From assembly GCF_000027125.1 (NCBI RefSeq), contig NC_017626.1: a stretch of DNA of 64,000 nt. The stretch is one strand, 5' to 3'. Position numbers and translations under genes: made by a program. This DNA is from Escherichia coli 042 (GTDB lineage: Bacteria > Pseudomonadota > Gammaproteobacteria > Enterobacterales > Enterobacteriaceae). The notes below the pieces were generated by a model. That model worked only from the letters and a program-made list of their open reading frames with translations. It had not been told where the DNA came from and searched no databases. Below are positions 1,555 through 63,400 of this stretch, piece by piece; the first letter of the stretch is position 1; every line of letters begins with the position of its first letter.

Positions 1555-4500
1555 TTTTTCGCCTCCTGTACCTGATCGCGACCTTCATCATCCAGCCAGT
1601 TAACGTTCTTCATCTTGCGGATCATGATGAATTCGTCGCGGTTCGAGCCGACGGTGCCGTAGTAGTTAAAGCCCCAGGCCAGCTGCGCGTAACCGCCAAT
1701 CATATGCGTTGGTTTCGGACAAACGCGGGTGACCGAGTTATGAATGCCGCCGCGCATGCCAGTTACTTCCGAACCAGGAATATTCATAATGCGTTCCTGG
1801 GCGTGATACATCATGGTCATACCCGGCGGTACACGTTGGCTGACCACCGCGCGGGCAGTCAGCGCGCCGTTGGCGTTAAACACTTCCACCCAGTCGTTAT
1901 CGACAATGGTCAGTTCACGGGCATCGGTTTCGCTGATCCAGACAATTGGTCCACCGCGAGAGAGCGTCAGCATTAGCAGGTTTTCACTGTAGGTTGAGTG
2001 AATGCCCCATTTCTGGTGCGGCGTCAGGAAGTTAAGTGCTTTTTCCGGGAAGCCGTTTGGCGGTATCTGGCGCATTTCACTGACGCTACGGGTGTCGATA
2101 GGCGGGCGATAAGCCACCAGGCTTTCACCAAAAGCACGCATCCACGGATGATCCTGATAAAGCTGCTGGCGTCCCGACAGCGTGCGCCACGGAATTAACT
2201 CATGAACGTTGGTGTATCCCGCGTTATAGGAGACGTGATCGCTTTCCAGACCAGACCATGTGGGGCTGGAGATAATTTTACGTGGCTGCGCCTGAATATC
2301 GCGAAAGCGAATCTTCTCGTCCTCTTTGTGCAGCGCCAGATGGGTATGTTCGCGTCCGGTGATCTCGCCCAGCGCCTGCCACGCTTTGACTGCAACATGA
2401 CCGTTGGTTTCCGGTGCCAGCGCCAGAATCACTTCTGATGCGTCAATGGCGGTGTCAATCAGCGGACGCCCCTGTGCTGGGCCTTCACGCTTGGTGTAGT
2501 TGAGTTTGCCGAGGAAATCGATTTCATCCTGGGTATTCCACGAAATCCCTTTACCGCCGTTGCCAAGTTTGTCCATCAATGGCCCGAGCGAGGTAAAGCG
2601 TTCATAGGTAGCAGGGTAGTCGCGTTCCACCGCCACAATATTGGGCGCAGTTTTACCTGGAATCAGATCGCATTCGCCTTTGCGCCAGTCGAGCACTTCA
2701 CACGGCTGTGAGAGTTCTGCCGGAGAGTCATGCAGCAGTGGTTGTAATACCACGTCGGTTTCTTTGCCAAGATGGCCCACGCACGCTTGCGAAAAGGCTT
2801 TGGCAATACCTTTGTAGATTTCCCAGTCGCTGCGTGATTCCCACGCCGGATCGACCGCCGCAGATAGGGGATGAATAAACGGATGCATATCCGAGGTGTT
2901 CATATCGTCTTTTTCGTACCAGGTGGCGGTGGGCAGAACGATATCGGAGAACAGGCAGGTACTGGACATACGGAAGTCGAGCGTCACCAGCAGGTCGAGC
3001 TTGCCTTCAATCGCCGCAGTTTGCCACTCGACTTCTTCTGGTTTGATCCCGTCGCTGGCACCGAGTTCCTGACCCTGAATCCCACTTTCGGTTCCCAGCA
3101 GATACTTCTGCATATACTCGTGGCCTTTGCCGGAGGAGCCAAGCAGGTTAGAACGCCAGACAAACAAATTACGCGGATGATTGCTGCCGCTATCTGGTTG
3201 TTCGCAGGCCATGCGTAAATCGCCCGAATTCAGCGCCTGGGCGGTAAATTCTGTGGGGGATAATCCGGCCTTGTCGGCTTCAGCTTTAATCCCGAGCGGG
3301 TTACGCCCCAGCTGCGGCGCAGAAGGTAGCCAGCCCATACGTTCGGCACGAACGTTGAAATCAATCAGATGACCGCTGTACTTACTGGCATCGGCGAGCG
3401 GTGAAAGTAACTCCTGAGCAGAGACTTTTTCATAGCGCCATTGGCTGGAATGATTGTAGAAAAACGAGGTGCTGTTCATCTGGCGCGGTGGTCGGTTCCA
3501 ATCGAGCGCAAAGGCCAGCGGCAACCAGCCGGTTTGCGGGCGCAGTTTTTCCTGACCGACATAGTGTGCCCAGCCGCCACCGCTTTGCCCGACACAACCG
3601 CAGAAGATCAGCATGTTGATCATTCCCCGGTAGTTCATGTCCATGTGGTACCAGTGGTTAACACCTGCGCCGAGGATAATCATCGAGCGTCCATGCGTTT
3701 TATGGGCAGTATCGGCAAATTCACGAGCGATGGTTTCAATATACTGGCGCGGCACACCGGTAATTTGCTCACCCCAGGCTGGGGTGTACGGTTTGATTTC
3801 AGCGTAATCTTTCGCGCTGTTTTCATCTTCCAGCCCGCGATCGAGGCCGTAATTCGCCAGTACCAAATCATAAACGCTGACCACCGGACAGGTGTTGCCA
3901 TCGGCTAATGTCAGGTTTTTAACGGGCAATTGGCGCACCTGGACCGGATTGTGTTTTACGCTGCGAAAATGCGGATTTTCAATGCCGCCAAAGTAGGGGA
4001 AGGCCACGCCTGCAACGGCATCATGTTGACCGAGCAGGGTTAATGACAATTCGGTTTCCGTACCGGCGGCAATAGATTCCAGATTCCATTTGCCTTTTTC
4101 TCCCCAGCGAAAACCAATCGAACCGTTCGGCACCACCAGTTCACCTGCGGTATTAACTGCCACGGTTTTCCACTGCGGATTATTGCTTTCGCCCAGTCCA
4201 TCCACCAGGTCAGATGCGCGGACCATGCGCCCGGGAACGTAGCTGCCGTCGTCGCGAGGTTCCAGCATTACCAGCATCGGCATGTCGCTGTAGCGGCGGC
4301 AGTAGTTGATAAAATAATCGCTGGGATTATCGAGATGAAACTCTTTTAAAATGACATGGCCCATTGCCATTGCCAGGGCACTATCAGTGCCTTGTTTCGG
4401 TGCCAGCCACTGGTCGCACAATTTGGCCACTTCAGAGTAGTCAGGGGTAATGGCGATGGTTTTAGTGCCTTTGTAGCGTACTTCGGTAAAGAAGTGGGCG

Positions 4501-47981: not shown

Positions 47982-48743
47982 TCAAATAGCTAAAGCATTC
48001 ATCGTGTTGCCCTTATTCATACCCGTGTGCCTTTGACAACGGTACTCCTTAGAAACTCTCTTTGGACTGTTGCCAAAATGTTTGCGGAACGCATAAATAA
48101 AATAAGATGTACTCGCATAACCACATTGTTCGGCAATTTTATTGACTGAACCTTCTACGCGTATCAAATTTTTTGCGTGCTGCATTCTGGCATCTAAAAG
48201 AATCTGTGAGAATGTCGTTTGCTCTTGCTTTAGTTTTTTCTTCAACAGGCTTTCACTAATGTACAGGCAGTCACAAATATCTTTCAGCTTCCATGGGTGC
48301 GCCAGCTTCATGTTGACAATATTTCTAACTTTCCCAGAAACGGATAGCACACCGTTAGTTAATAGTGTAATGAAACCTTTGCATGCGGCAAAAATAGACA
48401 GGCAAGAAAAAAGCAAAAGTTCTGAAAAATTATGATGATTGCGTTCTTCCGAGTTGAGATAAGCAATCATTTCATTAAGCAATCCAGTCGGTACATTTGA
48501 AGCACGTAAAAACTTCGCAGGAACAGGCACCGTCACTGTCTGGATGTTAGTGCATTGTAGATATTTTTTAATGGTATTTTCATTAAATCCGATTTCTTTG
48601 AAATGCCGCTCATAAGGTTCAAAATGCGTACGAACAGCGTTATCTACCATCAGGATCTCGCCGTCAGAGAAGGCGTAATCTTTATCTAAAATGTTAGCGT
48701 TGAAGGCATGATGAATAAATATAACAGAACAAACGAGCGACAT
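47982..48743 (-). CDS. ydeO: AraC-family acid-resistance regulator
   Basis: 253 aa with C-terminal AraC HTH (…QCGYASTSYFIYAFRKHFGNSPKR); downstream of safA. Confidence 0.9.
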   Translation of the reverse strand: MSLVCSVIFIHHAFNANILDKDYAFSDGEILMVDNAVRTHFEPYERHFKEIGFNENTIKKYLQCTNIQTVTVPVPAKFLRASNVPTGLLNEMIAYLNSEERNHHNFSELLLFSCLSIFAACKGFITLLTNGVLSVSGKVRNIVNMKLAHPWKLKDICDCLYISESLLKKKLKQEQTTFSQILLDARMQHAKNLIRVEGSVNKIAEQCGYASTSYFIYAFRKHFGNSPKRVSKEYRCQRHTGMNKGNTMNALAI

Positions 48744-53914: not shown

Positions 53915-56530
53915 TTAGCGACAGATTGCTGTCTGCTGGTTCAGTAAGGTTCCAGGAGAGACTTCAGGAAGCTTGTAATCGACTATACAGTTTGAGTTTT
54001 TATCATTGCCCCATGAAACCTGTAATTTCCCTGACTGTGGAAGTCCAGTCAGATAAACCTGACCGTTTTCTGCGACAATGCTGCCATTTTTATTCTCTCC
54101 GTGTGTGACAATTGCACCGAATGGAACGCTCTTATTACCGTACTTCAACGTCATTAATACTTTCCCGCCGATTTGTGCATTAAATGTTGCTCTGGCAATA
54201 GCACCGTGAGTTGGGATGACAGTGACTACGGTTTCATCCAGTTCAACATTATCTGCAAGGGAATTCGCGTTAAGAGCGACACGATTTTCTCTATATTCTG
54301 TCGCAAATGGTAATATGGCATAGCCACGCCAGTCGGTATGAATTCCGGTCTGGTTCTCTATTTTGACATTATCAGCGCCAGGAGCCTTAACCAGAACCAT
54401 TGTGTCGCCCAGCGGCTGTCCAAAGGTGATGCCATCAGCATGAGCAATAATCCCACCACTCATTCCGTAATAAATCTGGCTGCTGTCACCACTCCGACTG
54501 TAACCGACATTCGTATTACCGTAAGCTCCACGATAATTAAGAGAACTGTAACCACTGGTGCCAGACGATGTATTACCTCCGTGGGTGTTACCGACCTGAA
54601 CGCTATAATTCAGGTTATTATCCGGCAGCAGAGTGCCATAAACTCCCGATAGATTGGTCATGCCACCTTTCAAATCGTTTGACATACTGTAACTGGCGTT
54701 TGAATTACGAAATGCCGACTGACTGTCTGTACGCATCCAATGACTGAAGGGAACATTAAGCGTAAAAGCGAGTAAATGATCCCGATCGTTTTGCCATATA
54801 TTATTGGAATAGCTGTAATTCAGCGAAGTCGTAATATCACCAAACGGCACATTTAATCCAAATGATATTTGCTGGTCGCTGCGTGACGTGTTCCAGTAAC
54901 TTTGGCGACTGGCACTGAAAAATGTCGTACCGTAATTTCCAAGCTGCTGAGAGATGCTTATTTGTTCCTGACCACGCTTACTGTAGAACAGATTAAAATA
55001 ATCAATAAATTGTGTCTGCTCATTGGTGTCTCCGGTAGGAGGCTTGACGGTGTAACCACTCATTCGACTGTAGGCACTGTCGGATAAGTTATAAAAACCT
55101 TGCGTAGAATAGCGATATCCTGCGACCTGGATATTGGTTCCTGTCTGGTAGAAGGATTTGCTGTAGACGGATTTAACCGATTGCCCGCTGTGACGGGTGT
55201 CATCTGCAAGCGTCGTATTGGCTTGCGTGATATCGAAAGAAAAGGCACCAAACAGTCCCAAATCTTTACCAATACCAAGGTTGAAGGCCTGATAATTTTC
55301 TGCAATTTGCATTCCGCCATAAGGTGTCCAGTTTCCTTCCAGTCCATGCATCAAGCTACCTTGTATGAACTTGGGAGAGCTTTGCAGGTTATTTCCACTA
55401 CGATATTCCCCCATGGCAAGCGCATAACGCGTATATCCAGCACGTTGGAGAACCGGAACAGACGAATAAGGAACATATAATGTCTGAATACTGCCGTCTG
55501 CCTCTTTTATGGTTACTTGCAGATCACCACCATTGGCCGCAGAGTTGATATCATCAATAGTAAAAGGGCCGGGTGGGACAGTAGTCTGATAAACATCGTA
55601 TCCATTCTGTTTTACACTCACTTGTGCGGTGCCGCGGGCAATACCATGAATCACCGGAGCGAAACCATGTTGGCTATCGGGCAACATCGCTTCTGTTGAA
55701 TTTATTTTGAGGCCACGAAAGTTCACACTATCAAAAATATCGCCATCGGTATAACTATCACCTACCGTTAAGCGTGAGCGTAAGGGAATAATGTCACGTT
55801 CAGCCGACGTATTGATATGCTGCCATTTATTGCTGTCAGATGAATTGCTACTCCCACTGTTATAACTCCACGTTGAGTTATCGCGCAGTCGCCAACTACC
55901 AATGTTGATGCCACTCTGTAAATTCAAATATGCATAGTTGGATTTTCCTGCATTATGGTTACTACGATTATTAATAGAATTACCATTAAAACTATAGTTT
56001 AGAAGCCCAGCATTTATTCCTTCTTCCCACAGATCAGGAGAAACATAGCCGCGAGCCATTCTGCCAACATAAATTTGCGGAACGGAGAGTGACAGATGTT
56101 GCTGACCAACATCAAACTCAGTTGATGCGTCGGCCAAACGATCCTGAAGTGGTGTGCATGTGCTGTTGTCCGGCACATGTTTTTCTGCCGAATGTTCCTT
56201 ATTGTCCAATAACGCAGATTTTTTTATGCCAAGACTGACAAGAAGCTCTGTACTCAGGCATGGGATGAGATCTGCGTTATTATCATCTGCAATAAAAGTA
56301 ATATCCCGACTAGTCATAAATTCGTCGTTCAAATAAATGTCGACCCGATATGTACCAGGTGGTGCCTCGCGTCCCTTAGTAAAGGCGGATAAATCGACAG
56401 ATTCAGCAAGATCATTGCTTAAAAACCGTGGATTAAAATAATACTCTGCGTCAACGGGAAAAACCGCAGTTGCTAAGCCAAGGGCAATGGTAAGCCGTGC
56501 AAAGCGAGGCAGTAGTAACACCTGATGCAT
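53915..56530 (-). CDS. ydeT: Fimbrial outer-membrane usher (FimD-like), full length
   Basis: Track ORF starts at 56566; likely start ATG 56528-56530 (MHQVLLLPRFARLTIALGLATAVFPVDAEYYFNPRFL). Long FimD-like segments such as TVPPGPFTIDDIN...GDLQVTIKEADGS. Confidence 0.85.
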   Translation of the reverse strand: MHQVLLLPRFARLTIALGLATAVFPVDAEYYFNPRFLSNDLAESVDLSAFTKGREAPPGTYRVDIYLNDEFMTSRDITFIADDNNADLIPCLSTELLVSLGIKKSALLDNKEHSAEKHVPDNSTCTPLQDRLADASTEFDVGQQHLSLSVPQIYVGRMARGYVSPDLWEEGINAGLLNYSFNGNSINNRSNHNAGKSNYAYLNLQSGINIGSWRLRDNSTWSYNSGSSNSSDSNKWQHINTSAERDIIPLRSRLTVGDSYTDGDIFDSVNFRGLKINSTEAMLPDSQHGFAPVIHGIARGTAQVSVKQNGYDVYQTTVPPGPFTIDDINSAANGGDLQVTIKEADGSIQTLYVPYSSVPVLQRAGYTRYALAMGEYRSGNNLQSSPKFIQGSLMHGLEGNWTPYGGMQIAENYQAFNLGIGKDLGLFGAFSFDITQANTTLADDTRHSGQSVKSVYSKSFYQTGTNIQVAGYRYSTQGFYNLSDSAYSRMSGYTVKPPTGDTNEQTQFIDYFNLFYSKRGQEQISISQQLGNYGTTFFSASRQSYWNTSRSDQQISFGLNVPFGDITTSLNYSYSNNIWQNDRDHLLAFTLNVPFSHWMRTDSQSAFRNSNASYSMSNDLKGGMTNLSGVYGTLLPDNNLNYSVQVGNTHGGNTSSGTSGYSSLNYRGAYGNTNVGYSRSGDSSQIYYGMSGGIIAHADGITFGQPLGDTMVLVKAPGADNVKIENQTGIHTDWRGYAILPFATEYRENRVALNANSLADNVELDETVVTVIPTHGAIARATFNAQIGGKVLMTLKYGNKSVPFGAIVTHGENKNGSIVAENGQVYLTGLPQSGKLQVSWGNDKNSNCIVDYKLPEVSPGTLLNQQTAICR

Positions 56531-56607
56531 ACGATATGCCTTAAATGCGGCACGAAAGGCTGTCATTATTTATTCCGATTGAGTTTATTATTAATTAGGT
56601 CACTGGC

Positions 56608-57327
56608 TTACTGCATGGTTGCCTTAATACGCGGAGTTAATGCACCGTAATCATTGATCGTCTGAAAACTGATATCCCCGGTTGCAGCATGCGGGATATC
56701 CACCGATACTTCACCTTTTGGCGGCACCATGGTGTTTGGGAGATTGCTATTTCCTGCTTTCATATTTGTTACGGTAATGAAGTAGGGCGTTGGATTAATA
56801 AGAGTGAGTTTGCTACCGCTGCGACGAAACCGAAGCATTGCTGGCGCTTCTTCAGGTGCCATTGCCAGGTTAGTGGGGCGATAAAACATTTTTATGCGGC
56901 TAATAATTGCCAGCTGTAATGTATTCTCATTCTTCTGGTCTTTTTCCATAGCAGGAATAGCTTTAACATTAACCCAGAACAGGCTTTCACGGTCGCCTGG
57001 TAACTGATGATTAGTGGCGTTGATTATCCGCAGCGTATTCTCTTTTTTACCTTGCATGGAAAAAAGCGGTGGAGTAATGACAAACTGGGTGTCTTTTTGG
57101 TCACCTGCATTTTCTATCCATGACTGAATGAGATAGACACTGGCAGGATCATTATTCGTGACAGGCAATAAAACCTGTTTCTGGTTTGCCGGATAAATTA
57201 CCCGCGTCGCACCCAGTGCGACAGCTGCGTTGGCAACGGTGCTATGGCAAGCAAAGAGCAATAAAAGTAACACTGTCGCCATAAAGGAAATAGAGTAGGG
57301 GGTACGCGTAGTTTGCATCTGATGCAT
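56608..57327 (-). CDS. Periplasmic fimbrial chaperone (FimC-like)
   Basis: 239 aa with signal peptide and PapD-like fold; start may be one of the internal ATGs. Confidence 0.8.
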   Translation of the reverse strand: MHQMQTTRTPYSISFMATVLLLLLFACHSTVANAAVALGATRVIYPANQKQVLLPVTNNDPASVYLIQSWIENAGDQKDTQFVITPPLFSMQGKKENTLRIINATNHQLPGDRESLFWVNVKAIPAMEKDQKNENTLQLAIISRIKMFYRPTNLAMAPEEAPAMLRFRRSGSKLTLINPTPYFITVTNMKAGNSNLPNTMVPPKGEVSVDIPHAATGDISFQTINDYGALTPRIKATMQ

Positions 57328-57678
57328 TCTCCATGTGTTAAGAGGATAAGCGGGAAAACCGTTACATCAGACAATCGATAAATGTTGCTAATACATTGGC
57401 GAGTCGCCGGGTTTCCAGACTTAATGCGTTTGTAATAAATGTTGGTTCTCTTTTAATAGGAAAACCTTGCTACAAAGTAAATATTTTAAATAACAGTAAG
57501 TTTAACTACTGTTGTTTATTGATCGTTTAGATATTATGTGATTTTTCATAGTGCTCCAAATACAAACCATTCCTCATTAATAATGAGATTCACATTGGCG
57601 AATTGCTCGGGTGTGCGTAGCCATGCCACACACACCCTGTTTCAATTTCAGATGACGTATAGCCACCTTAAGATTGAA

Positions 57679-58242
57679 TTATAGATATTGAACTTTGAAG
57701 GTCGCATCAGCGTTTGCAGTACCAGCTACTGACTGCCCGAGAGCAATATAACGAGCCTGGAATGGCAGTATATTCGTGCCATCAATCAAGTCGGTTTTAG
57801 CGCTAAAAGTGCCACCATCAAGTATTAATACCTCCCCCGTACGGTCCAAAATTTGAATACCAACATTTTGGGCAGAGCCTGCCGCTGAACTCTGCAGCGC
57901 TAAGGTATCGTCATTACTGGTGACAGTAGTACCCAGGAATGCAACAGCTGCATTACTGGAAACATTGGTATCACAATCATTCAGCTTGATATTGAAGCCA
58001 ACGGCGGAGCTGAGGTCACCCGCTTTAGCCAGACGAGAAGAGCGAACCTGACCCAGCTCAACCGTTTGGTTCATTGATTCTGAATCAATCGCACAAGCGG
58101 CATTTACCACTTCACCTTTAAAATGAATAACACCGCCATTAACAGTGGTCGTTACTGATTCATCACCCTCGGCTGCGCTTACCGCAGCAGACGACATCGC
58201 CAACACAGAAACGACAATCATACCGACATGTTTGAGTTTCAT
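57679..58242 (-). CDS. Major fimbrial subunit (FimA-like pilin)
   Basis: Start at ATG 58240-58242 ([23 protein letters not shown]) with GGAGAA RBS; 187 aa ending ...DATFKVQYL. Confidence 0.8.
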
Positions 58243-58675
58243 AATTCTCCAAAATTTATATTTAAGTAGCTGAATAAAGAGAGTTAACAATTAAGTCATT
58301 CTGTTATTGCTTATAAAACAAGAATCATTCTTGATGGGATATTGCCCTGAAAATATAGTTTCCAGGGTTATTACATTTCACGAAGAACGATAATATCTTT
58401 AAATTACAAGGACACCTAATCACAACAAGTTTATTGCAGCACTTGTTGTAGAGAGTAGTTGCAAAAACATTTTATGTCGCTAAATAACATGACGATTTCA
58501 TTATGCATGATGTTTATAAACAGCGACTAAACAGAATATTATTGCGAACAAGGGAAGTGTCAGGAAAGGTCAAGAGCGACTAATGGTTTATATGGCTATA
58601 AATTATTAGCTATGGTTAATGTTTGCATGGTGAAACTAACGCCGAAATGCTCTAACCAGATAAGTGCAGGGTTTA

Positions 58676-58930
58676 TTAAAGCTGACCAAGAGGCTTTCTT
58701 AATTTAGTAATATCTCTCTTAGGTGGCTCTCCAAATATCCGCGAATATTCCCGACTGAAATGAGATAAGCTTTCGTAACCGACAGCATAGGCTGCAGTGG
58801 TGACATCGTAATGTTCATTCAGCATCAGTCGCCTGGCTTCACTGAGGCGTAGCCATTTCTGATACCGGAGTGGACTCATTCCCGCAAGCTGTCTGAAGTG
58901 TTGATGGAAAGAGGGTGTGTTCATTTGCAC
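58676..58930 (-). pseudogene. yneL: AraC-family regulator, C-terminal HTH fragment only
   Basis: 84-aa ORF covering only the second HTH of an AraC/XylS domain (…GMSPLRYQKWLRLSEARRLML…SLSHFSREYSRIFGEPP); no room upstream for an N-terminal domain before hipA. Confidence 0.6.
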
Positions 58931-59211
58931 GCGGTTTGCCAGCCTGACTCTTCAACGCAGGGAAGATGCGGCAAACGGCAAACCTGCATACCAGCCAGCC
59001 TATATCCGGTATGCACAGGCCAATTATGAAAGAGGAGAGGCTTTATGTTCTGGAACCCTGAAGTAATAACGACGACCGGAAAATCGCTTCGCATCACTCA
59101 AATTCCATTTAACATAATATACATTATGCGCACTAATATAAACCAAGGGAGAATCCAGTCGTTGGCGGTCATGATTGTCCTGCTCATTAACAACGACCAA
59201 AACCCCATATC

Positions 59212-60478
59212 TTACTTAATACCGTATTCTCGGCTTAACCGGCCGTGCAACCTCAACACATTGGTTTCAACTGCCGTCACCACGTTCTCCGGAAAATCTG
59301 TCGGTAATGAAGTCTTCACGTTATCCAGTGCTGCCGGAATCATTCTGGCAAAGTCACTCAGGATTTCATGCATCTGCACTTCCGGAAATTTCAGCAACTT
59401 TGCTGTCGCCAGAAAATGTCGCGGATAAATTTTATCGATTGCCGTTTTTTTGCCTTTGGATGCGTTAAGCCCCATTGCCAGTTTGAGATCGCTGATGTGT
59501 ATTCCTGCGCCACCCAATACCGGAAATGCTGAAATGATGTCGTAAAATGGCGTGAGTCGATAACTGCCGCCAGCCTGAATAAATACGGAGAAGTTTTTTG
59601 CATGGCCATCCGTTGCGCCAATCAACCACTGGAACACCTGAAACTTCATAAAATCATAGCGATCTTTCAGCGCCTCGCTGGACCCCATCAAAAAAGCCAT
59701 GATCCGCGCGATGCCTGGGCCTCCATCTGATTCATATTTCACCGATGAAGTTAAACCGAATGTCTGACACATATCCTCCTGTGGCAAGCGAAGTAAAACC
59801 GTTCGCTCAGCATTCCAACGCCTGTCAAAACGTTCGACCGCTAACGCGCGCACATTCCCCGCTTTAATGATTTCTGCGTCCGGCACATTCAACCCAAGTT
59901 CTTTCGCCAGCAGCAGACAGTAATACTCATTATCAACGCTTTGGCTGAGATCGAGCGTCGCATTGGGCTGCCTGATTTCGCCAATCGGTAATTTAATGAT
60001 GTGCGTCGTCGGCGTTATTCCTTTCGGAATGCACCAGTCATTGCCTATTCTGAGCAGCGCTGTCTTCTCCTGCGCGCCAGCAACCGAGATGCGAAAGTCA
60101 TTTTCTTCTCTAATCATGCCCAGAGGGATATCTGCTTTATAAGCCGTTAATACTTCTTCAAGTCTGGCTTCAGTAAGCTTTTCCCATGCCATTATCGGAT
60201 GCGTTACGGTTTCGTCTTCGGGTATTAACGTCACGGCACCAACGCTGTCTCGCCCTATTTCTGACAATAAATCAAACGGTTGTCTGGATTTGGCATGATA
60301 ACGTTTAACGATCCGGTCACGTACAATCGGGCTATCGGGTAACAGATTATCGAAGAAGTTAAATACGGCATCAGAGGTGATATTCCCCCTCTGCAATGGC
60401 AGCGAAAGTGACAACGGTCTGGCATAACGGCTGGCTAACCACTCCGGTGCATACTTAAAGGTGTGCGCGCCGTTGGCT
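59212..60478 (-). pseudogene. hipA: hipA toxin kinase remnant, 5'-truncated, no hipB
   Basis: HipA-type sequence from about residue 19 (LANGAHTFKYAPEWLASRYARPLSLSLPLQRGNITSDAVFNFF...) to the stop at 59212. An in-frame TGA lies three codons upstream of the first homologous codon. No hipB, promoter or RBS upstream. Confidence 0.75.
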
Positions 60479-63400
60479 AGCGAGAATCATAGTCGTCAGC
60501 AGAACGGTTATCGGAACTGACGCTGTTATCAAACCAGTTATACAGCGCCCAGCTGTCAACATAAGCGCCGGTCTTATTCGCATCGTTCTGATACCAGGTC
60601 GCGTACAGTCCTGCGCTGTAACCGCTGATGCGCCCATCCGATTTATAACCCACACGATTACTCTGAGTATTACTGTGCTGATTGGCGTAGCCTGCCATCA
60701 CGCCAAGATGCCAGCGATCCTGCGCGTTGCTACTCCACTGCGCCAAATCGCCTCCTAGCTGCAATACATAGCGGTTAGCCTGAGTATTTAGCTGGCCGTC
60801 ACCGGTCCTGAAACGTTCGTGCCCCCCGACATGACGCATCCACATACTGCTTGCCGAACCCTGAGAATGCAGTGAATCTGTATACTGCGGCTCACCCAGA
60901 CGGTCGTGTAAGCGATGGCTAAACAGCGAGTTGGCTGCGGCAATGTTGCTGATATAGCTTCCGGCCTCCGGGCGATAAACTGATGGGCCTTCCGGATCCA
61001 CAACAGGGGGATTATTGATGGGATCGGGTGTATCCGGTGGCGTTACGCCTTCCCATTTACTGGTCAGATACCAGTTTTTCTCGTCATTCCCCTTCCCTTT
61101 AGCCAGCGTGTAGACGTAAGCCCCAGCTTCGACAGTTCCGGTGGTCAGCGCGAAGTTACCTGCAGAATTACCGCCAACCTCAATGAGTTCAATACCGTTG
61201 ACCGTTTGTGCACCGACGCCGCCAATGTTATCAACCCGAACGCGAGTGTTCCCTTGGGTATCGCCTTTCACGTTCATCTTATCGGTGGGCGAATTATCGC
61301 CGCCCAGCGTCGCGTTGAACGTCATCAGGCCATTGTTTCCGTTATAGTTACCGTTAACGGTCAGTACATTCCCCGGTTTCCCCCCTTCGCTGTTCATTTG
61401 AACCGTGCCACCATTCTCCAGGTTACCGCCGACAGTGGTTTTAGCGACACGCAGTGTCCCCCCTGGCATAACGTTCACATCACCTGCAGTGGTGACATTT
61501 CCCGACATCACACCGCTGTTATGGATATTAATGTGCTGACTTGCCATATTAATGGCAGAGTCGGAACCGAAAGCAATTTCACCACCCACGATATCCGTCG
61601 TACCCTGATACGCCGCGGAATCGTTGTTAAGAGTCAGGATCCCGGTACCCAGTTTTGTCACATCACCGCTACCGCTGATACTGTGCGTCATCGCCCAGCT
61701 ACGCTCAGTGGAGATGGTGAGCAGGCCATTATTGATAACGGAAGCATCACCCAGGTTTTTCTGCTCGTTGACGCTGAGCGCGCTGCCTGTATCAATGTTG
61801 AATTGCCCCACAAAGCGGCTATTATCGCCATCCAGCTCTACATCTGTCCTGGCGGTTGCGCTCACGATACCCTTCCCGCTTATGCTATTACGCAGTTCTC
61901 CAGTCACGTTTTTTAGCGTTAACAGACCGTCATTGGCAATATTTCCTCTGCCTAACCCCTGCGTATTATCGAGGCTGACTTCCGCATTTGGGCTAATGCT
62001 GGTTAACGCATTGTAGCGTGCATTAAGCCCCTCGATAGCCAGTGTTCCCCCTGTAACATTCAGGTTTCCGCCACCTGTCAGTTCACCCTGACTGATCCCA
62101 CCTTTATTTACCGTGAGCGCCCCCTCTTTGAACAAAACAGTCGAACCCATCTGCCCGGTGAATGTCTCTACCGTCTGCGTCGATCCATTAAGATCGACGA
62201 TGGCCGCGTTGCTGATGTTCAGTTCCCGGGTGTTGCCAAGTGCACCATCCGCATCGGTACGTAATGTCCCCATCTGAACGTAGGTTGCCCCCTGATAGTC
62301 GTTCTGACCGTTGGAAAGCGAAACCTGTCGTACCGTATTGATTGCCAGATCCCCTTCACCACCGATTTTTGCCGACATATCGGCTGTTGCGCCATAGGCT
62401 CCGCCATGTTCGGCTAACGTCAGCTTTTGCCCACCATGGATGTTCAGCGCTTTCAGCCCATAGTTAACGTACAAACCATCACCTGGTGCGGTCGTGAGGC
62501 GGAATCCATAATCACCCTCGGCGACCACTGTTCCGTTTTGTGCAATGTGTAACTTTTTGTCCGCTTCCACCGCGTCGCCCTGTAAATCACGTAACGTTAA
62601 TGAGCCACCCGATCCAATAACCGTTTGCGCCTTCACCAGTTGAACGCCGACATGGCTATCATCGTGTTCCAGCAAATTGAGCGTCGTCAGAGGGTTATTC
62701 GCCATGGGATCATTCCACGGTTTAGGCACGTCGATAAGCACGTCGCCCATCCCGTTTACCTGATAGTTACGGCCTTTCCAGGTGTAGTCACCCGTGCCGA
62801 CAACCAGCGTATCGACGCTGATATATCCCTCCGCAAGCGTCGCAGCAGGTATATCCGTATCGAAAGTGAGCGTACCGCCATTCATGGCTAGTCCACCAAT
62901 GGATTGCTCTCCCACTTTTACCGATGTGGTATTTTCACTGTCAGACTGAAGCATCGCGTGAGTAAGCGCAGCGGTGTTGTCGCGTTCCAGTGTGAAGGTA
63001 CTGTCTTTCAGTTGGGCAACACCGGCGAATTCAGTTCCTGTTGCATGGGTAAAGCCAAACATTTTGTCGGAGGATGACAGCTGCACTCGCATCAAGCCAT
63101 CGCCTTTGAGCGCATTGGTCAGCGTGTAATCTCCTGCACTGTTCGTTGATGCGAGAATGTCGAGCGTACCGGGGCTTGCAATGGTTACTTCACTCGAACC
63201 CATGCCTGTTACCCCATCTGCCGTATGTGACGCAATAGTCAGGAGGCCGTCATTGACCAGCGTTTTACCACTATAAGTATTCCCTGCATTGAACACCGTA
63301 TGGCCTGCATCATGCATCACTTTTCCGTCTTTATCGTCACCCGTAATCAGCATATCGACCTGGTAGCCGGCATCACTGTTATTAGTATGATTAAAGACAA

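Follow-up and report, generated by a model that had tools for sequence, protein, structure and literature searches.

[quoted passage not shown] Within the stretch of DNA analyzed here (64 kb, hereafter the window), the list of open reading frames places this frame on the minus strand at positions 58676-58930, where it opens with a GTG codon and encodes 84 amino acids, an in-frame stop codon standing just 5′ of it at 58952-58954. The first-pass annotation took it for a fragment of an AraC/XylS DNA-binding domain, and the resemblance is real: the translation matches Pfam HTH_18 (PF12833) with an E-value of 4.9e-21 and 75.2 bits against a cutoff of 33.6, which assigns it to the AraC/XylS family, and HTH_AraC (PF00165) with an E-value of 5.6e-8 and 33.2 bits against a cutoff of 26.6. 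The 84-aa frame covers positions 6-76 of the 80 positions of the HTH_18 profile, and the homologous stretch as a whole comprises 88 codons (58679-58942), the first of which corresponds to profile position 1; stop codon included, the relic delineated by Pfam, BLASTN, tblastn, and the PGAP annotation is the 3′ end of a regulator gene, at 58676-58942 on the minus strand. Describing it as only the distal helix-turn-helix (HTH) was thus inaccurate, since the profile is matched from its first position and 88 of the ~100 residues of the DNA-binding domain are kept. A complete domain of about 100 aa, with seven helices and two HTHs, is nevertheless not what this stump contains. When an intact orthologue is aligned to solved structures (query 197-292 = MarA 13-108), the stump starts at residue 217 of the 304-aa orthologue and at about residue 33 of MarA, and in intact relatives the first HTH_AraC match begins 13 residues before that point. 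By the helix boundaries of the MarA structure, the stump is devoid of helix 1 and of most of helix 2, but keeps the second HTH whole, together with the linker helix and the recognition helix that belongs to the first HTH.

The closest proteins with additional N-terminal sequence combine AraC_N (PF06719) with HTH_18, and a full HMMER scan with one of these longer relatives returned proteins of about 300-320 aa with the same two domains. In a scan of species representatives, intact orthologues of about 304 aa were found in Enterobacter vonholyi, Citrobacter youngae, Enterobacter sp. MGH24, and Klebsiella michiganensis, with 88-92% amino acid identity; no equivalog model of NCBIfam reaches its cutoff for the orthologue, so that the orthologue group counts as uncharacterized. 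The six-frame search for N-terminal remnants suggested by the first-pass annotation, which we extended by tblastn to the whole 64-kb window with four full-length relatives and pieces of the Klebsiella orthologue as queries, found no AraC_N domain (~150 aa) or remnant of one in any frame: all the alignments at the stump begin at 58942, and the remaining matches in the window have E-values of at least 0.001 and fall in unrelated genes. The weak matches at 60289-60483 (regulator residues ~197-259, E = 0.009-1.3) lie in the hipA reading frame and were taken as chance, and matches picked out by eye in the upstream frames (AYRI/GYRL against GYRIGKAIDW) proved spurious, as homology stops at 58942 and the DNA beyond it belongs to other genes. 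Elsewhere in the window, 48033-48335 on the minus strand gives a weak tblastn match to an AraC-family DNA-binding domain (E about 0.001-0.1), presumably from a separate and intact regulator gene.

At the nucleotide level, the same limit is met, for BLASTN of the window against the Klebsiella orthologue loci (L004-L007) yields a single ungapped match of 279 bp, at 58664-58942, with 84% identity. The claim that there is no space upstream for the rest of the protein also holds, because only 281 bp separate the start of the frame from the hipA stop codon (59212-59214), and a missing N-terminal part of ~215 aa cannot be accommodated there; from the breakpoint at 58942 the distance to hipA is only 269 bp. 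On these grounds, we consider as refuted, with a probability close to nil, the idea that a full-length AraC gene sits here and is masked by a frameshift or a sequencing error. Masking of that kind is met with in one assembly of Enterobacter hormaechei, where an AraC_N frame overlaps an 82-aa HTH frame, and in some long-read Klebsiella assemblies, which split the regulator likewise, but upstream of 58942 the window shows neither AraC_N similarity nor homology to the Klebsiella gene, and what it holds there instead is a hydrolase gene relic, a DUF2255 gene relic, and the dif site, all described below. The reading as an orphan AraC-family fragment deprived of its N-terminal part is, in short, borne out by Pfam, BLASTN, tblastn, and the comparison of strains.

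This fragment turns out to be a standard E. coli locus. Megablast against 5,426 complete E. coli genomes recovers it widely, and in every fragment-bearing E. coli locus that was opened its 267 bp bear the PGAP label of an HTH-domain pseudogene, "incomplete; missing N-terminus", with the fimbrial operon on one side and hipA on the other. The stump occupies the place of yneL, flanked by the fimbrial operon and by dif/hipA and on the strand of hipA, and it is 92-97% identical in nucleotides to the fragments of other E. coli genomes, with the same 5′ breakpoint. The 84-codon frame is therefore the yneL-type pseudogene, which was already known: the K-12 annotation gives yneL as a pseudogene, and the literature treats YneL either as a pseudogene or as an uncharacterized AraC-family factor of no known function. 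The breakpoint is identical in all six E. coli loci that have the full 88-codon fragment, which argues that the truncation is old and arose in a single event; we accordingly rejected the view of it as a recent local accident tied to the hipA junction, which is created by a strain-private deletion. On the other flank, homology of the stump to other genera stops 12 bp past its stop codon, and the fimbrial side is thus a breakpoint too; the nearest gene there is that of the FimA-like major subunit (57679-58290, minus strand; open reading frame list and strain comparison). The operon to which it belongs (53915-58290, minus strand) appears intact in the window, with major subunit, chaperone, and an 883-aa usher.

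What the stump derives from can be read in the 165-bp spacer that separates it from dif. The first relic there is a 60-bp piece of an alpha/beta-hydrolase gene (58945-59004, plus strand), which reads ...LQRREDAANGKPAYQPAY... and is 81-93% identical in nucleotides to sequences of five species (L006 4295-4354, L014 7259-7318, L015 8367-8426, L016, and L017), where the matches fall inside hydrolase frames of 357-393 aa; in other genera, this hydrolase gene is transcribed divergently from the regulator. The second, at 59025-59070 on the plus strand, is a 46-bp remnant of the first ~15 codons (MKEER..FWN.EV) of a DUF2255 gene, with a 1-bp insertion, and is 91% identical to L014 6305-6349 and L006 3710-3754; the product of L014 5959-6348 matches DUF2255 with an E-value of 9.5e-40. 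Both relics stand in the ancestral order, that is dif, DUF2255, hydrolase, and regulator 3′ end, and their collinearity implies at least three deletions. Indeed, dif lies 1.4-5 kb upstream of an intact regulator, in the orientation of the window, in E. vonholyi, C. youngae, MGH24, and four K. pneumoniae assemblies. The interval between the two encodes, on the opposite strand, a flavodoxin-like protein, a DUF2255 protein, an alpha/beta hydrolase, and an iron alcohol dehydrogenase in E. vonholyi, and a HigBA module and the hydrolase in C. youngae.

On this basis, a stepwise history can be proposed. The enterobacterial ancestor would have carried the regulator a few kilobases from dif, divergent from a small accessory operon comprising an alpha/beta hydrolase, DUF2255 and flavodoxin-like proteins, and sometimes an iron alcohol dehydrogenase. 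By analogy with YqhC-like AraC_N regulators, the ancestral protein probably controlled this divergent operon. In the E. coli lineage, at least three illegitimate deletions would then have removed about 4.9 kb, a total reckoned relative to E. vonholyi, while sparing, in their original order, dif, the 46-bp and 60-bp pieces of the DUF2255 and hydrolase genes, and the 3′ end of the regulator gene; the N-terminal 216 codons of the regulator would have gone together with its probable target operon. The stump would have drifted neutrally thereafter; depending on the E. coli lineage, it has since been cut shorter, frameshifted, or lost. At the terminus, dif must stay, and the dispensable, horizontally exchanged genes that flank it are deleted, replaced, or interrupted time and again.

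Intact copies of the regulator do exist in E. coli, in 94 of the 5,426 genomes, where they are accompanied by the alpha/beta hydrolase and a truncated iron alcohol dehydrogenase. This cassette (e.g., L098 6471-9915, in E. coli C10) resides in a degraded prophage-like island beside intS/tRNA-Arg, a location that shows it to be horizontally mobile within the Enterobacteriaceae. A full-length AraC-family frame, which the first-pass annotation had envisaged as the finding that could overturn its reading, is accordingly present in a trivial sense, in the intS/tRNA-Arg island of these genomes, and absent from the locus at stake; copies elsewhere leave the status of the stump at dif unchanged.

As for the dif site itself, at which chromosome dimers are resolved at the replication terminus, it occupies 59107-59134 on the minus strand, with the sequence AGTGCGCATAATGTATATTATGTTAAAT, which matches E. 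coli dif at 27 of 28 positions. The match occurs once in the 64-kb window, never in 100 shuffles, and judged by its sequence this is the chromosomal dif site. In the published layout, with two arms around a 6-bp core, GGTGCGCATAA is the XerC arm and TTATGTTAAAT the XerD arm, so that the XerD arm faces the stump, at 165 bp, and the XerC arm faces hipA, whose stop codon is reached after a further spacer of 77 bp (59135-59211). All nine KOPS motifs of the window (GGGNAGGG) point toward dif, seven to its left on the plus strand and two to its right on the minus strand, with none in the opposite sense, so that their polarity converges on the site. The GC skew is compatible with this position, albeit weakly, only 5 kb of mostly a single gene being available to the right of dif. 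A canonical dif stands at the same position in nine E. coli loci, and a preprint locates the dif of K-12 in the yneL-hipA intergenic region. At the first position of the XerC arm, the window's copy has A, where all 11 E. coli loci in which dif was found have G; the A form also occurs in loci of Klebsiella, Citrobacter youngae, and Enterobacter hormaechei. The interval initially delimited around the orphan fragment (58676-59211) hence includes dif and two short gene relics that had gone unmentioned.

If the stump is a remnant, is it nonetheless a gene? It could be that the 84-aa frame is expressed as a stand-alone AraC-type DNA-binding protein with a new role, be it a minimal regulator in the manner of MarA/SoxS or a dominant-negative one. 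Codon by codon, however, its evolution in E. coli does not have the signature of a coding sequence. The 30 sites that vary among eight E. coli alleles are spread over codon positions 1, 2, and 3 as 10/8/12, a distribution for which uniformity is not rejected (P = 0.67), when four intact orthologues give 9/2/25 (P = 9e-6). The stump thus displays no excess of third-position or synonymous change, and the flatness of its spectrum next to that of the orthologues points to neutral decay. In the same vein, dN/dS amounts to 0.06-0.11 in comparisons with Klebsiella (inter-genus dS of about 0.7) and to 0.3-1.2 between pairs of E. coli alleles, and the 7 nonsynonymous and 5 synonymous differences between the window and L008 reject the inter-genus constraint (P = 0.003) and not neutrality (P = 0.11). 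Residues conserved throughout the family have been replaced in several lineages, as in FSREY changed to FCREY or FRREY.

The distribution across the population bears on the same issue. At least 80% of the fragment is retained in 1,280 of the 5,426 genomes and some of it in 4,256, most of those below 80% having the shorter K-12-type form, which is also frameshifted; in about 1,170 genomes (about 22%), none is detectable. Several observations were counted against the pseudogene reading, and speak for a mini-regulator: about one E. coli genome in four, namely the 1,280 above, still has the frame open; most pairwise dN/dS values within E. coli stay below 1, and the counts for the window and L008 are no proof of neutrality; and the microarray compilations cited in PMC9308461 report condition-dependent yneL transcripts. 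Read-through from hipBA would explain such transcripts and is conceivable, given that no terminator is predicted from hipA to the frame (none was found in a scan of 58300-59400), but in this window the hipBA promoter has been deleted. Between dif and the start of the frame, no sigma-70-like promoter is predicted save one minus-strand site over the AT-rich dif core, probably by chance; by eye, no good Shine-Dalgarno sequence precedes the GTG codon, and an Rfam scan of 58200-59500 gave nothing at E ≤ 1. A preprint moreover reports that a 525-bp deletion including yneL in K-12 had no growth effect in the assay used. With these points added to the incompleteness of the seven-helix domain, from which helix 1 and most of helix 2 are gone, we consider a functional mini-regulator very unlikely, and we are highly confident that the stump is a pseudogene in neutral decay.

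Decay is not restricted to the regulator. On the other side of dif, hipA (59212-60479, minus strand; Pfam HipA_C and Couple_hipA) is devoid of its first 55 bp and of its promoter. Alignment with L008, where hipA spans 3112-4434, ends with window position 60479 opposite L008 4379, and L008 4380-5394 is missing: the junction at 60479/60480 is that of a 1,015-bp deletion which has taken hipB and the intergenic region along with 55 bp at the 5′ end of hipA and 483 bp at the 3′ end of an autotransporter gene. The latter, of the ECSE_1600 family, is left 3′-truncated at 60480-63992 on the minus strand (open reading frame list and L008 comparison), with a stop codon (60477-60479) supplied by hipA-derived sequence. 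What remains after this deletion is a toxin gene deprived of both promoter and antitoxin and an autotransporter whose barrel end is missing, and the junction is not found in one piece in any complete E. coli genome. At 1,537 bp from the stump breakpoint, it corresponds well to the distance of about 1.5 kb at which the first-pass annotation, starting from the hipA junction, had located a second rearrangement boundary.

The broader proposal that this interval is a hotspot of gene decay gains support from the comparison with orthologous loci that it called for, since nine E. coli loci set against the window reveal at least six deletion or replacement states within 2 kb. L001 and L013 have a deletion from 59272 into the autotransporter gene, L009 has a 5′ truncation of hipA ending at 60280, and L096 has lost most of hipA, with an endpoint 5 bp from dif. 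In L012 (E. coli GN04171), 58641-59097 has been replaced up to 9 bp from dif by 398 bp of other DNA (L012 1841-2238), 65 bp of which resemble dif-proximal sequence of E. vonholyi, so that the two XerD-side haplotypes of E. coli are not simple derivatives of each other. K-12-type genomes, for their part, have lost the fimbrial major subunit and chaperone, along with the 5′ portion of the usher gene. Throughout, dif itself is kept while the accessory genes beside it turn over. Location at the terminus is the most economical explanation for this turnover and decay of accessory genes at the flanks of dif, and proximity to dif plausibly raises the rate of deletion and turnover.

Insertions are observed there as well. 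An integrase-less island of 7.9 kb sits between dif and the relic spacer in some genomes (e.g., L094 32400-40185, in E. coli MSB1_7C), its insertion point coinciding with the edge of the XerD arm, and its junction with the spacer is found in 466 of the 5,426 genomes (8.6%). It encodes a LysR regulator, a GATase1 protein, two aldo/keto reductases, an NAD(P)H oxidoreductase, a quinol monooxygenase, and a CMD-family protein. Its far junction has only GTTAAAT in common with the XerD arm, preceded by the dif-core-like AATTATGTATAT, and the island is possibly either an Xer-exploiting element or the product of a microhomology-mediated deletion. We did not retain it as ancestral content, for in the other genera examined nothing equivalent lies near dif.

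The same regulator has also been truncated outside E. coli. In K. pneumoniae ATCC 13883 (L018 9555-10258), a single deletion of 5.28 kb (L006 857 to 6140), which starts 430 bp beyond dif and has a 3-nt microhomology (TGA) at its junction, leaves a regulator remnant ~430 bp from dif, with an endpoint 19 bp from the E. coli breakpoint. An 82-aa product of Enterobacter hormaechei (P0014) was examined as a third truncation and discarded, as it reflects a frameshift or an assembly error in an otherwise full-length gene. That the E. coli and ATCC 13883 deletions end no more than 19 bp apart, both sparing the same ~265-285 bp of 3′ segment, might suggest that the DNA of the stump is kept for a role in cis, either as a spacer or buffer on the XerD side of dif or as upstream regulatory DNA of the fimbrial operon, the stump being directly upstream of the major-subunit gene and on the same strand. 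Such a role appears extremely unlikely, however: the L012-type replacement leaves dif, hipBA, and fimA in place, the 7.9-kb island implies that the distance from the stump to dif is not fixed, the downstream neighbor is a different gene in Klebsiella, and the closeness of the two endpoints is one coincidence and, as such, weak evidence.

From the same coincidence between independently truncated regulators, from the E. coli deletions and replacements that stop 5-9 bp from dif on either side, and from the integrase-less island at the edge of the XerD arm, one could go further and see in the XerD-side flank of dif a "graveyard" that is systematically prone to deletion in Enterobacteriaceae, beyond what the location of dispensable genes entails. 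We regard this as doubtful. Were it true, it would point to rearrangements anchored at dif, whether linked to dif/Xer/FtsK or to the processing of the terminus, or else to a selected boundary inside the regulator gene.

For the annotation of this region, the consequences are mainly corrective. As a gene, the stump is of little importance, being an annotated pseudogene under neutral evolution, and yneL, which some surveys count among the candidate uncharacterized transcription factors of E. coli, should drop out of that set. As a place, the supposed decay hotspot is the replication terminus with its dif site, a landmark needed to annotate the window, and the origin of the stump, rebuilt from relics of 46-60 bp, offers a worked example of stepwise loss beside an indispensable cis site.

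It remains to situate these elements relative to known systems. The stump is comparable to MarA, SoxS, and RamA in its small size and in its HTH_18 homology to MarA residues ~33-108, but MarA-type proteins possess seven helices with both HTHs complete, whereas the stump begins inside helix 2 and shows no coding constraint. The AraC_N-type regulators (PF06719 + PF12833) include E. coli YqhC, whose gene is divergent from yqhD, which encodes an iron alcohol dehydrogenase. In their two domains the intact orthologues of the stump are built in just this way, and that of E. vonholyi is divergent from an iron alcohol dehydrogenase and the hydrolase; the window's stump differs in being without AraC_N domain, target operon, or evidence of function. 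With yneL (b1506) of K-12, which also goes under the label "putative HTH-type regulator", it shares the locus between ydeQRST-type fimbrial genes and dif/hipA, the breakpoint lineage, and the PGAP label; yneL of K-12 is 19 codons shorter and frameshifted, whereas the window's allele is the longer, un-frameshifted form of 88 codons found in about 24% of genomes, with substitutions of its own that are common only to a small group (P0004). Finally, the window's dif sequence departs from the E. coli site by the A that replaces G at position 1 of the XerC arm, and otherwise resembles the dif of the XerCD-FtsK system of this species: it is likewise a 28-bp site, it lies between yneL and hipA, and the KOPS motifs converge on it.
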